64,000 nt of DNA from Escherichia phage LF82-1. The notes beneath the pieces are model-generated. The model was not told the DNA's origin, did not search any database, and worked only from the letters and a program-made list of their open reading frames with translations. Position 1 is the first letter of the stretch, and each line of letters opens with the position of its first letter. A program made the translations under genes and the position numbers. The stretch lies in the sequence record PV648359. One strand, written 5' to 3'. This document shows positions 57,211-60,159 of this stretch, in pieces.

Positions 57211-57705
57211 TCACAACTTATTAATATTTACTTTAATTCGCTTTCTTTTCTTGGAAGGAATTTGTTCTGGACCTTTATTTACGACTGCACCCGTAGTAGT
57301 TCCTGATGCAATAGCTTGAGGGCTGCCACCTGAATCACCAGCAACCATATCCTCGAATAAAGGGAGTTCTTTAAATATTTCTTTCTGCTGTTCTTCCGTA
57401 ATGTTATAGCGTGAAGCTACAGCACTCCAGGCAGACATCATTGAGGCCATTCCATTAAGACCTGGAACAGTACTCATCATTCGCTTCATTGAACGAACTG
57501 AAGCATGAAAAGGTGTATAAGCCGCTTTCTCTTCGGGAGTAGAAGGACGTTTAAGAACACTTCCACGTTCGTCGATTATTTTGGCTTCGTACGCTTTCCA
57601 TTCGGTAAAAGGTTTTTGCATTAGTCGAATAAACTTATATGCGTAAACAGAATCTATTGCAGTGTTAATAATACCCATAGGTACCTCCTGAGTATATTTA
57701 ATCAA
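57211..57705 (-). CDS. hypothetical protein (61.1 position)
   Basis: 164-aa ORF. Confidence 0.45.
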   Translation of the reverse strand: MIKYTQEVPMGIINTAIDSVYAYKFIRLMQKPFTEWKAYEAKIIDERGSVLKRPSTPEEKAAYTPFHASVRSMKRMMSTVPGLNGMASMMSAWSAVASRYNITEEQQKEIFKELPLFEDMVAGDSGGSPQAIASGTTTGAVVNKGPEQIPSKKRKRIKVNINKL

Positions 57706-57895
57706 TCACAAAGATCGCTTTATCACCGTTCGCATCTGTGACTTCATATGTAGTGCCTTCATACTGTGGAATATTCCAAATTACACCATCATTAGCTTTT
57801 ACGCTAATATGGCATTGGTGTTTTGAAACAACTTCGTAATCTTCAAAACTTGTAAAAACACTAATTTTAGAACCAGTGCAAATTGCAGTAGTCAT
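57698..57895 (-). CDS. hypothetical protein
   Basis: 65-aa ORF. Confidence 0.4.
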   Translation of the reverse strand: MTTAICTGSKISVFTSFEDYEVVSKHQCHISVKANDGVIWNIPQYEGTTYEVTDANGDKAIFVID

Positions 57896-57896
57896 T

Positions 57897-58556
57897 TTAA
57901 CCTCGATTCATAAACGCATTAAATATTTGGTCATCAACAGAAATTTCTAATTCGACTTCAATTGCTTCAGCCTTTTCTTCAGGTGGTAATTCGTATCCAC
58001 ACACTACAATTTTTTCATCGATATCAAAATATACAGAAGCAATACGATTAATGTTACTTTCAGTTAAGTCTAAATCAACATCAACATCTTTTTGACCTAC
58101 ACTTAAAGGATAACTAATACGGGTTATTTTATTATCTTTAACAAAGAGTCCGCCAACATACTCTGTACTACGTTTGAAGTTTACACGTTTCCGAATTGAA
58201 AGATATGATACATCTTTACCGTGAGCTCGGCTCATAGGACATAATGAATAGCTAGAATAAGAGATGTCAAATCCTACACCTTCAATATGAGCCAACGTGT
58301 CATGAGTAAACCAATTATAGTCGTATGCTAAATCCATTAAATTATAATATGTGAAAGGCACTGGATTAACATCATATGTTGTACCTTTAAAATCTGCCCA
58401 TGCAACGATTTCGTTATCTTTAACAATTACAAAAATTACACCAATATGGTATCCATTATTATTTTCATTCGGCGTTATATTATAACATTGTGCATTAGGA
58501 AATTTACCATATTTAAATGGCGCGTTTTTGTGCATGTAATAAATCATATTATTCAC
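57897..58556 (-). CDS. hypothetical protein (61.2 position)
   Basis: 219-aa ORF. Confidence 0.45.
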   Translation of the reverse strand: MNNMIYYMHKNAPFKYGKFPNAQCYNITPNENNNGYHIGVIFVIVKDNEIVAWADFKGTTYDVNPVPFTYYNLMDLAYDYNWFTHDTLAHIEGVGFDISYSSYSLCPMSRAHGKDVSYLSIRKRVNFKRSTEYVGGLFVKDNKITRISYPLSVGQKDVDVDLDLTESNINRIASVYFDIDEKIVVCGYELPPEEKAEAIEVELEISVDDQIFNAFMNRG

Positions 58557-58842
58557 CTGTGATTTCGGTTACGATATCTTTGTTATCGAAATTAGGGTCA
58601 CAATACAAAACATAGTTGTACTGCATGATACCGCCAGACTTAAGTTGTTCAACAACTTTATTAACCATATTAGGACGGTCTCGTTTAGTGATGTTCATGA
58701 TATCAGAGAAGATTTGTTGTTCAACCTCTTCTTGATTTGCAGTCATTGACCACTCACAGAGGTCTTTATCATAACCTGCTGTAACTGGAGCCGGTGCACA
58801 TGATACTGCAAGTAAGATTGCTGCCAATGATAACTTTTTCAT
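58549..58842 (-). CDS. sp: Spackle-like periplasmic protein (superinfection exclusion)
   Basis: 97 aa as T4 Sp; N-terminal signal peptide; position 61.3. Confidence 0.6.
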   Translation of the reverse strand: MKKLSLAAILLAVSCAPAPVTAGYDKDLCEWSMTANQEEVEQQIFSDIMNITKRDRPNMVNKVVEQLKSGGIMQYNYVLYCDPNFDNKDIVTEITGE

Positions 58843-58871
58843 TTTAACTCCTTAGTTGATTTGATAGGACT

Positions 58872-58901
58872 ACTATACTATAGACCATCTATAATGTAAA
58901 C
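58872..58901 (-). promoter_or_regulatory. T4-type early promoter upstream of sp
   Basis: GTTTAC, 18 nt, TATAGT. Confidence 0.55.
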
Positions 58902-58905
58902 AAGT

Positions 58906-59154
58906 TTATTCTTTTTCGCGAATAATAATTACTTGTTGAGGCTGCTGAGCAGATTTCTTTTCGGCAACGATAGACCAAATTAAAGTTCCAATCCAACCAA
59001 CCATCGTCCAGTTAAAGAGTAAAGATACAAAGAAGATTGCTGTTGTGCTTTTTGTGCCACGAATAAGTGCGATTACCCAAGGCAACATGTAAATGATGAT
59101 TGAACCAATACCTGCGATTAAAACTGCTACTGAACTAGCCACGAATAATTCCAT
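58906..59154 (-). CDS. small integral membrane protein (61.4 position)
   Basis: 82 aa with two predicted TM helices. Confidence 0.5.
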   Translation of the reverse strand: MELFVASSVAVLIAGIGSIIIYMLPWVIALIRGTKSTTAIFFVSLLFNWTMVGWIGTLIWSIVAEKKSAQQPQQVIIIREKE

Positions 59155-59182
59155 GTTAATTTCCTCTTGATTTGTTATGTTT

Positions 59183-59212
59183 ATAGTATCTTGGTTTAAC
59201 TTTGGTGTAAAC
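59183..59212 (-). promoter_or_regulatory. T4-type early promoter
   Basis: GTTTAC, 18 nt, TACTAT. Confidence 0.55.
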
Positions 59213-59215
59213 CAA

Positions 59216-59584
59216 TTAATTAAATTTGTTTAAACGTTCAATACACTGGACGTAGTTATTCGCGATTTGTTTCTGGGTAGGCTCTTTACCAGTTGTTTCA
59301 ACATAGCGAATAAATGCGATTTCAGTAGCCTGTAGACAATGTTCTTTAACGCGTTGTTCTTTTGACATAGCTACAGTATCAGAGTCACGATAACGTTGAG
59401 CATGAGCATCAGCTTGAATCATTCGATTACCTACAGTAACCGGGTCTTCCACTTCAACTTTAGGTTGGTTGTACTGTTTAACATTCGGATTGTAAATCAG
59501 TTGGCCAACGTTATTAGGGATAAAGCCATGAGCACCACATCCGGTTAATCCAAATACCATTGCTAAAGCGATTAATTTTTTCAT
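59216..59584 (-). CDS. putative lipoprotein
   Basis: Signal peptide with lipobox LTGC. Confidence 0.5.
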   Translation of the reverse strand: MKKLIALAMVFGLTGCGAHGFIPNNVGQLIYNPNVKQYNQPKVEVEDPVTVGNRMIQADAHAQRYRDSDTVAMSKEQRVKEHCLQATEIAFIRYVETTGKEPTQKQIANNYVQCIERLNKFN

Positions 59585-59612
59585 TTCAATTTCCTCTGTA
59601 GTTGATAGAAAG

Positions 59613-59642
59613 ATAGTAACACAGTATGCGGTGCTTGTAAAC
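59613..59642 (-). promoter_or_regulatory. T4-type early promoter
   Basis: GTTTAC, 18 nt, TACTAT. Confidence 0.55.
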
Positions 59643-59656
59643 AGCTATTTTTAAAA

Positions 59657-59845
59657 TTATCGAAAATCAGCTTCAAAAACTTTCTCGTCATTAATAAATG
59701 CTTTAACTAATGCATTGTTCACTTCAGCAAGTTGTACCGTAACCCACTCGATTTCTTCGCGATCACCTGATAACATGATATCTTTAGTGAACATCTCGCC
59801 GCTTTTAAACCAGCCAATAAAAGTAACTTTAGTTAATTTGCTCAT
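59657..59845 (-). CDS. dmd: Dmd (discriminator of mRNA degradation; antitoxin against RnlA/LsoA)
   Basis: VTFIGWFKSGEMFTKDI...AEVNNALVKAFI matches recalled T4 Dmd; start taken at MSKLTK. Confidence 0.75.
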   Translation of the reverse strand: MSKLTKVTFIGWFKSGEMFTKDIMLSGDREEIEWVTVQLAEVNNALVKAFINDEKVFEADFR

Positions 59846-60159
59846 ATTTCCTCGCAAAATGCCCATTCAGCGTGATAAACTGTAGCACCTTTAGTATTAT
59901 TCATTTGAACTACGTCTACCGGAGAAATTACTCGATAGAGACGTGGTTCACCTCCATAAGAGCGTGCTGCTCGTCCTGCATAAATCTTTGCTAAACCGAT
60001 ATCTTCAGTAAAGAATACACGATTCAAGTTTTTCTTACGTCCAGTTTCAGACAGAACTCCTGTTTCCTCAGGAGGACAAAGCATGTTTTCGATGTTAGCT
60101 GAACTACTTGAACCGTGATAAAAAATCTTAAATTCTGCTTTACAATCGATGGTTTTCAT
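59842..60159 (-). CDS. hypothetical protein between 41 and dmd
   Basis: 105-aa ORF; ATGA coupling to dmd. Confidence 0.45.
   Translation of the reverse strand: MKTIDCKAEFKIFYHGSSSSANIENMLCPPEETGVLSETGRKKNLNRVFFTEDIGLAKIYAGRAARSYGGEPRLYRVISPVDVVQMNNTKGATVYHAEWAFCEEI

Follow-up and report, generated by a model that had tools for sequence, protein, structure and literature searches.

What does the gene that precedes dmd in an RB69-type phage encode, and does its product work together with Dmd? This question is raised by the interval between genes 61 and 41 of Escherichia phage LF82-1 (record PV648359), where positions 57211-60159 of the 64,000 nucleotides analysed (the window) hold a 105-aa open reading frame (ORF) coupled to the antitoxin gene dmd. 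The interval is the known hyperplastic early-gene and anti-toxin-antitoxin (anti-TA) region of an RB69-type (Mosigvirus) phage. Most of it is already known, since Sp, Imm, Imm.1, Dmd and AdfA have been identified, and the 105-aa ORF is the one gene still unnamed. Its product is shown here to be a minimal ADP-ribosyltransferase-fold (ART-fold) homologue of the N-terminal three quarters of Arr. The protein, called ART below, is most likely an immediate-early effector that would depend on nicotinamide adenine dinucleotide (NAD+) and act independently of Dmd, a reading to which a probability of about one half is given. Phage ARTs, such as Alt, ModA, ModB and AcrIF11, and bacterial ARTs, such as DarT and CmdT, are central to phage-host conflict.

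Fold and family of the 105-aa protein

A first-pass annotation, made from the letters of the sequence, proposed structure prediction for this ORF. The AlphaFold2 (AF2) model, built on an alignment of 31 sequences, has a predicted local distance difference test (pLDDT) value of 86 and displays an Arr-like ART fold. Its best Foldseek match in the PDB is Arr (9iaf; probability 1.0, template modelling score 0.62 for the query, E 8e-3), with further, weaker matches to the ART-fold proteins ParT and PltA, and among the viral models of BFVD it matches 'Ms Rifampin ADP-ribosyl transferase' (E 3e-8). Alignment of profiles with hhalign links residues 10-84 of the family to Arr-ms/Arr-2 (probability 93.6%, E 2e-7), pairing H15 with H19 of Arr in the HG[ST] motif and S37 with S37 of Arr. 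All three methods place the protein in the ART split beta-sheet fold.

The names attached to this family are sparse. Its group, phrog_2110, is annotated 'unknown function', and a database search returned 117 close clusters, a few of which are labelled 'ADP-ribosyl transferase', as is the RefSeq protein of phage HX01. T4 has no counterpart of the ORF. Its earlier description as uncharacterised is incomplete in view of this RefSeq label and of a prediction published by Iyer et al. 2022 (PMC9503650). Against Pfam Arr (PF12120) the window protein scores 13.6 bits (E 0.077), below the gathering cut-off of 25 bits; Pfam Arr-ms is matched by 5 of 31 family members, and remote relatives exceed its cut-off (26.9-31.5 vs 25 bits). 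Sequence searches of the PDB gave no match for the single protein or for a close-family profile, a non-significant match to Arr only for a broader family profile (E 0.18), and spurious matches only for a divergent member. A full-library search with hidden Markov models retrieved 249 cluster representatives at E <= 0.001, many of them a domain within large multidomain proteins, together with ART-PolyVal, NUDIX, ddrB-ParB, phage portal protein, Acb1-like 2H phosphoesterase, GNAT/Toprim or DUF7178 domains. This is the polyvalent-protein architecture described for phages and conjugative elements.

Arr is defined by H19 in HGT, Y49 and the catalytic D84 in DPN[VL] (PMC6092378, PMC8120803). In the ART family, 11 residues are invariant in 27 diverse sequences (H15, G16, E38, R41, F49, A57, Y60, G62, G69, G91 and V94). 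Compared with the ART motifs H-Y-[EDQ], R-S-E and H-H-h, the family has an invariant H15, F49 in second place and a third position without a conserved acid. Past the aligned core, 21 residues remain in the 105-aa protein vs about 60 in Arr. An assignment as a true Arr was rejected on the sub-cut-off Pfam score, the change from Y49 to F49, the unrecognisable D84/DPN[VL] and the missing C-terminal part. A DarT-like identity was also rejected, as Pfam DarT gave no match.

Relationship to dmd and proposed role

The first-pass annotation had the ORF translationally coupled to dmd, and the junction bears this out: within ATGA, the stop codon TGA of ART (59844..59842) and the start codon ATG of dmd (59845..59843) overlap, and GAGGAA precedes them. 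Such a junction invites the explanation that the two genes form a phage-borne type II TA system, in which ART would be a toxin, perhaps acting on RNA, and the coupled Dmd would neutralise it. Iyer et al. 2022 (PMC9503650) predicted exactly such a system from a 'p0068-family' ART toxin and a Dmd antitoxin in Escherichia, Shigella and Salmonella phages, and reported that in Klebsiella phages Dmd is also paired with a Mod-like ART. Their ART-Dmd pair is very probably the same gene pair as here, with 'p0068' a putative name of the present family. Both published pairings speak for a TA system, as do the ATGA overlap, the common early promoter and the adjacency of the two genes retained in Mosigvirus-like and Dhakavirus-like loci (L002-L010, L014).

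The overlap, however, is weak evidence and not diagnostic, because overlapping or abutting start-stop junctions are frequent across this genome. The two genes also differ in their distribution. The ART family occurs in 609 phage records, including 116 from Klebsiella, 68 from Acinetobacter, 62 from Aeromonas and 14 from Vibrio phages, whereas the 798 Dmd records come nearly all from phages of Escherichia, Shigella, Yersinia and Salmonella; 566 of these fall below 60% identity to the Dmd of LF82-1, the band in which T4 lies. In T4, dmd stands next to gene 41, and a 105-aa ART counterpart was not found. Most phages with ART thus lack Dmd and most phages with Dmd, T4 included, lack ART, so that an obligate co-occurrence is not seen. 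Among IMG/VR loci, Dmd lies directly downstream of ART in only about 10 of 66; elsewhere the ORF after ART encodes an unrelated product, such as an Sp-like secreted protein, a 41-46-aa acidic peptide with CxxC pairs, a 55-60-aa membrane peptide, or something else. In two Dhakavirus-like loci (L004 and L005, 4001..4522), ART proteins of 100% identity are followed by Dmd proteins of merely 57% identity, Dmd having been swapped or having quickly diverged behind a fixed neighbour. Additionally, the Dmd partners known so far are the homologous toxins RnlA and LsoA (PMC9503650), which are unrelated to the ART fold. Synteny and distribution argue that ART and dmd are probably independent genes, and a TA pair is considered unlikely. 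Whether Dmd is an antidote to ART bears on the published prediction.

Some related loci show other surroundings of ART. In Acinetobacter phage Acj61 (L070), the ART homologue (1974..2297) has a gene for nicotinamide phosphoribosyltransferase, an enzyme of NAD+ salvage (1..958), about 1 kb upstream of it, an arrangement that may link NAD+ supply to an NAD+-using enzyme. In loci of enterobacterial T4-like phages (L012, L016, L017 and L019, at about 4295..4458), the ORF abutting ART encodes a very acidic peptide of 41-46 aa with two CxxC pairs, resembling a zinc ribbon. In Klebsiella phage KP15 (L072, 3001..5719), ART is found outside the 41-61 interval, upstream of srd and RNA ligase 2, and in KP15-like phages it is followed by a membrane peptide of 55-60 aa with an ATGA overlap.

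Conservation of the protein offers a further clue to its role. ART is 89-90% identical where gp41 reaches 67-68% and gp61 62-63%, and in Acinetobacter-phage loci the values are 67-71%, 56-63% and 44-56%, respectively; in loci that also hold gp41 and gp61, conservation is consistently highest in ART. Because ART is conserved above these replisome genes, an enzyme acting on a conserved target fits better than a fast-evolving stoichiometric inhibitor. This bears on a second explanation, in which the protein would be an ART-fold binder or decoy that retains a nucleotide pocket without transferring ADP-ribose; for instance, it could sequester immune signals derived from NAD+ or occupy a host defence protein related to ARTs. 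Its very small size, the Phe for Tyr at Y49 and the absence of a conserved acid at the D84 position of Arr would suit such a role, and so would its neighbourhood of stoichiometric inhibitors (Dmd, AdfA and, in relatives, TifA) and the fusion of one polyvalent relative to an Acb1-like 2H domain. Inhibitors of this type, however, usually evolve fast, and the invariant HG[ST] motif with the invariant Gly/Arg/Glu pattern is more reminiscent of an enzyme active site. The binder or decoy is therefore judged improbable.

An Arr-type enzyme directed at a small molecule, for example inactivating a rifamycin-like RNA polymerase inhibitor for a phage that depends on the host polymerase, is very improbable: Arr is the closest solved structure and the sole PDB family reached by a sequence profile, but the protein lacks roughly the final 40 residues of Arr, a part that contributes to the rifampin pocket and includes S99, H125 and V140, which are among the residues tied to rifampin binding (PMC6092378), it does not retain the SN[YF] and DPN[VL] motifs, and its relatives in injected polyvalent proteins point to macromolecular conflict.

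The preferred reading is that of an immediate-early, NAD+-dependent effector independent of Dmd. ART would be made right after infection from its own T4-type early promoter, bind NAD+ and mono-ADP-ribosylate a target conserved throughout the Gammaproteobacteria, which could be a host macromolecule or a nucleic acid. It would thereby act as a fourth host-takeover or counter-defence ART next to Alt, ModA and ModB, while Dmd would be co-transcribed with it and work independently. In the same interval, Sp and Imm exclude superinfecting phages, Dmd blocks RnlA/LsoA and AdfA, here the R164 allele, is an anti-DarT factor, roles that come from the literature and from homology. Catalysis by the 105-aa protein is a prediction. 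A more specific version, in which the protein would be active, the smallest known ART catalytic unit, and would use a non-canonical site (H15, F49, E38 and R41) to modify a target conserved in all bacteria, perhaps RNA or DNA, in the first minutes of infection, is put forward tentatively and at less than even odds.

Several points weigh against the preferred reading. The canonical catalytic triad is incomplete, as the position of Arr Y49 is taken by the invariant F49. The profile alignment ends two residues short of Arr D84, where a gap-free extension gives hydrophobic residues or N/S, and the family alignment has no conserved acid near D84 that could fill the third catalytic position. E38, the sole invariant acidic residue, lies in a less confident loop of the model (pLDDT 66-75). 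The tight ATGA overlap and the published TA prediction are both still compatible with a functional link between ART and Dmd, and the conservation of ART could partly reflect recent horizontal transfer. The literature searched contained no experimental paper on the 105-aa protein.

If that more specific version is true, ART would be a fourth ADP-ribosylating factor, so far unrecognised, for host takeover or counter-defence, common to T4-like phages that infect Escherichia, Klebsiella, Acinetobacter, Aeromonas and Vibrio. With more than 600 sequenced T4-like phages encoding it and a conservation above that of the replisome, the 105-residue ART-fold protein represents a tractable gap, and the standard laboratory phage RB69 carries it as ORF040c.

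Neighbouring genes and early promoters

Over 3.2 kb (57100-60300), the sequence matches Escherichia phage LF82-2 and its siblings at 100% identity and many Mosigvirus (RB69-like) phages at 97-98%. Compared one by one, the proteins of the interval are about 98-100% identical to those of RB69, whose record gives the names sp, imm, imm.1, 61.4 and dmd to genes of the same interval. The minus strand carries every gene between gp61 and gp41 (Table 1). The sole plus-strand gene of the region is a 65-aa hydrophobic ORF (55955..56152), a homologue of RB69ORF029w, which converges on the 3' end of gene 61 with a 4-nt overlap. Phage-record counts of 609 for the ART family, 798 for Dmd and 656 for Imm.1 mark these as genes rather than chance ORFs. 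NCBIfam and PADLOC searches gave zero matches for any ORF of the interval, and an Rfam scan of it found no RNA family.

Table 1. Features of the interval between genes 61 and 41 and of its flanks, in window coordinates
Feature	Coordinates	Strand	Basis or remark
gp61 primase	56149..57171	-	one flank of the interval
61.1-like ORF, 155 aa, ATG start, AGGAGG Shine-Dalgarno	57211..57678	-	phrog_2086, E 1e-73
65-aa ORF, RB69ORF033c homologue	57698..57895	-	phrog_3249, E 1e-33; 98% identity to RB69ORF033c
adfA (gp61.2), anti-DarT factor A, 216 aa	57897..58547	-	Pfam AdfA PF23813, E 9e-119
sp (spackle), periplasmic superinfection-exclusion protein	58549..58842	-	Pfam T4_Spackle, E 1e-42; 67% identity to T4 Sp
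T4-type early promoter motif upstream of sp	58872..58901	-	GTTTACA-N17-TANNNT
imm, superinfection immunity membrane protein, two transmembrane segments	58906..59154	-	Pfam Imm_superinfect, E 2e-15
T4-type early promoter motif upstream of imm	59183..59212	-	GTTTACA-N17-TANNNT
imm.1 homologue, 122-aa lipoprotein, lipobox LTGC	59216..59584	-	Pfam DUF5481, E 4e-9
31-nt direct repeat, copies 77% identical	59591..59621 and 60164-60194		-10/5' untranslated region (5'UTR) segments of early promoters
T4-type early promoter motif upstream of imm.1	59613..59642	-	GTTTACA-N17-TANNNT
dmd, antitoxin-like inhibitor of host RNase toxins, 62 aa	59657..59845	-	Pfam Dmd, E 1e-20
Minimal Arr-related ART-fold protein, 105 aa, RB69ORF040c homologue	59842..60159	-	phrog_2110; AF2, Foldseek and hhalign
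T4-type early promoter motif upstream of the ART-dmd pair	60186..60215	-	GTTTACA-N17-TANNNT
Stem-loop with GGAGAC-UUCG-GUCUCC core	60220..60241	-	4 nt past the gp41 stop codon
gp41 helicase	60245..61687	-	other flank of the interval

The five ORFs described in the first-pass annotation are all present on the minus strand, four of them with matches to Pfam T4_Spackle, Imm_superinfect, DUF5481 and Dmd and the fifth being the 105-aa ORF. Three further ORFs of the range were not described there: the 61.1-like ORF, the 65-aa ORF and adfA, and AdfA is the only product in the range besides Dmd with an experimental anti-defence role. The two-transmembrane ORF and the lipoprotein, which had been treated as unknowns, turned out to be homologues of T4 proteins. 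The former is Imm, with an established role in superinfection immunity, and aligns with T4 Imm from end to end at 64% identity (E 4e-37) and with RB69 Imm at 100%. The latter begins with MKKLIALAMVFGLTGC, in which the lipobox L-T-G-C reported earlier can be seen, and is a homologue of T4 Imm.1 (32% identity, E 1e-18), with the lipobox in both proteins. The order of imm.1 followed by imm is the same as in T4, where the pair lies between genes 43 and 42, and the RB69 record annotates both genes likewise. Structure prediction, also proposed for the lipoprotein, yielded little: the AF2 model is poor (pLDDT 58.7, with 5 usable homologue clusters), only its C-terminal helical hairpin is confident, and a Foldseek search with it gave no meaningful match.

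The suggestion that the neighbours of dmd are candidates for anti-defence functions is sound in general and already published. Srikant et al. 2022 (PMC9391042) described the 61-41 region as an 'anti-TA island' with Dmd, TifA (61.4) and AdfA (61.2), and proposed its remaining genes as anti-toxin candidates. For the 105-aa ORF the suggestion is still reasonable; the two-transmembrane ORF and the lipoprotein correspond to known T4 proteins, which the annotation had named as a refuting outcome. Dmd itself has the sequence of the PDB 5I8J chain (100% identity), matches the Dmd of the LsoA complex 5HY3 with E 3e-17, and shares 58% identity with T4 Dmd. Residue 164 of AdfA is Arg ('NINRIASVY', numbered from MHKNAPF), as in RB69, while T4 has His. 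Work from the LeRoux laboratory reported that AdfA with His164 binds and neutralises DarT1 and that the RB69 form with Arg164 does not (PMC11257639). The R164 form found here therefore predicts a DarTG1-sensitive phage, unless a functional AdfN (gp30.3) is present. T4 gp61.4 is the ToxN inhibitor TifA (Srikant et al. 2022, PMC9391042), of which tblastn detected no homologue in any part of the 64-kb window (E > 1). In HX01, a TifA homologue comes directly after dmd, and gp61.4 is annotated at the same position in RB69. Both of these phages also carry an extra 124-aa gene (ORF041c-like) between gene 41 and ART, which is not in LF82-1.

The 61.1-like ORF starts at an ATG, which gives 155 aa; the ORF lister had placed its start at TTG 57705, giving 164 aa. 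It also matches phrog_1823 over residues 109-160, and Pfam, NCBIfam and PDB sequence searches returned no match. The gene is intact here and split by a frameshift into two ORFs in RB69 (L074, 1318..1784), and T4 gp61.1 is a remnant that comprises only the C-terminal part, about 54 aa, of the 61.1-like protein. In most related loci, Acinetobacter phages included, the ORF adjoins gene 61, and its persistence beside the primase gene even in Acinetobacter phages hints at a conserved role.

The genes of the interval appear to be arranged in units, each behind an early promoter. The motif GTTTACA-N17-TANNNT has 13 exact matches in the window, 13 of 13 on the minus strand, with 0.33 expected. Four of them, clustered within 1.4 kb, immediately precede ART, imm.1, imm and sp and have a conserved arrangement of 5'UTR and Shine-Dalgarno sequence in common. 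Four cassettes with one early promoter each would result: ART-dmd; imm.1; imm; and sp-adfA-orf65-61.1L. In 28 of 65 related loci, a comparable motif precedes the ART match by no more than 200 nt, mostly by 50-60 nt in enterobacterial lineages. Further candidate early-promoter sites on the minus strand include 5499, 7623, 9029, 10213, 32331, 37718, 38230, 48975 and 54990, and the 13 matches provide a ready candidate early-promoter map of the window.

The stem-loop behind gp41 has a folding energy of -12.8 kcal/mol (z -3.3), and 0 of 200 shuffles fold equally well. The hairpin lacks a T-run; a generic terminator scan passed over it and reported an intragenic site only. Together with the promoter, the stem-loop probably forms a terminator/promoter junction of the promoter-early stem-loop (PeSL) type. 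The two copies of the 31-nt direct repeat, located in the imm.1 and ART promoter/5'UTR segments, flank a 573-bp ART-dmd cassette. Relative to HX01 (L069), the junctions 59585..59656 and 60160..60244 show gaps of about 204 bp (tifA) and about 448 bp, with weak matches to promoter/5'UTR segments nearby. PeSL junctions have been proposed as a driver of cassette shuffling in T4-type phages (PMC2839356, PMC4122927). The junctions described here resemble PeSL, which fits the indels relative to HX01 and the extra genes annotated in RB69. Apart from ART, the interval mainly illustrates early-promoter cassettes (imm.1-imm, tifA, ART-dmd) shuffled among relatives.

Comparison with known systems

Among characterised proteins, Arr (PDB 2HW2, 9IAF; PF12120) is the closest parallel to the 105-aa protein. 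The two share the ART fold, the HG[ST] motif, the Ser of the SN[YF] loop, and the central helix with the strand that follows it, and both are unusually small for an ART. They differ in length (105 vs 143 aa), and the present protein is encoded by a phage, probably expressed early, and related to domains of polyvalent proteins. Like T4 Alt, ModA and ModB, it is a phage-encoded ART-fold protein; those enzymes modify host proteins, Alt from the moment of injection. Unlike these much larger members of the R-S-E clade, it has no detectable sequence similarity to Alt or Mod.

The window holds at least three ART-fold genes. Two adjoining genes for an 'RNA polymerase ADP-ribosylase' of the ModA/ModB type lie beside srd at about 52220..53467. 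With both Mod-like genes present, a replacement of ModA/ModB by the 105-aa ART was rejected, and ART is instead an addition to them. The gene srd adjoins the Arr-like ART in KP15, whereas in this window it adjoins the two Mod-like genes.

The interval agrees with the 'anti-TA island' of T4-like phages (Srikant et al. 2022, LeRoux et al. 2022) in its position between genes 41 and 61 and in the presence of dmd and adfA. It differs from the T4 island in that tifA is missing from the 64-kb window, that ART, absent from T4, is present, and that the imm.1-imm cassette lies in the 41-61 interval instead of between genes 43 and 42. The placement of an ART gene beside dmd in T4-like phages of Escherichia and Shigella is as in the system of Iyer et al. 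2022 (PMC9503650), where the gene order is unstated. Those authors assigned the family to the H-Y-[EDQ] clade and the pair to the TA systems, whereas the distribution data presented here favour two independent genes.

Finally, the layout recalls PeSL shuffling (PMC2839356, PMC4122927), as conserved promoter/5'UTR segments separate the cassettes, a stem-loop and promoter follow gp41, repeats flank ART-dmd, and two indels, one of them the size of tifA, distinguish the interval from that of HX01. It departs from the PeSL pattern in that a clear stem-loop occurs at the post-gp41 junction only, the other three junctions consisting of the promoter part alone.

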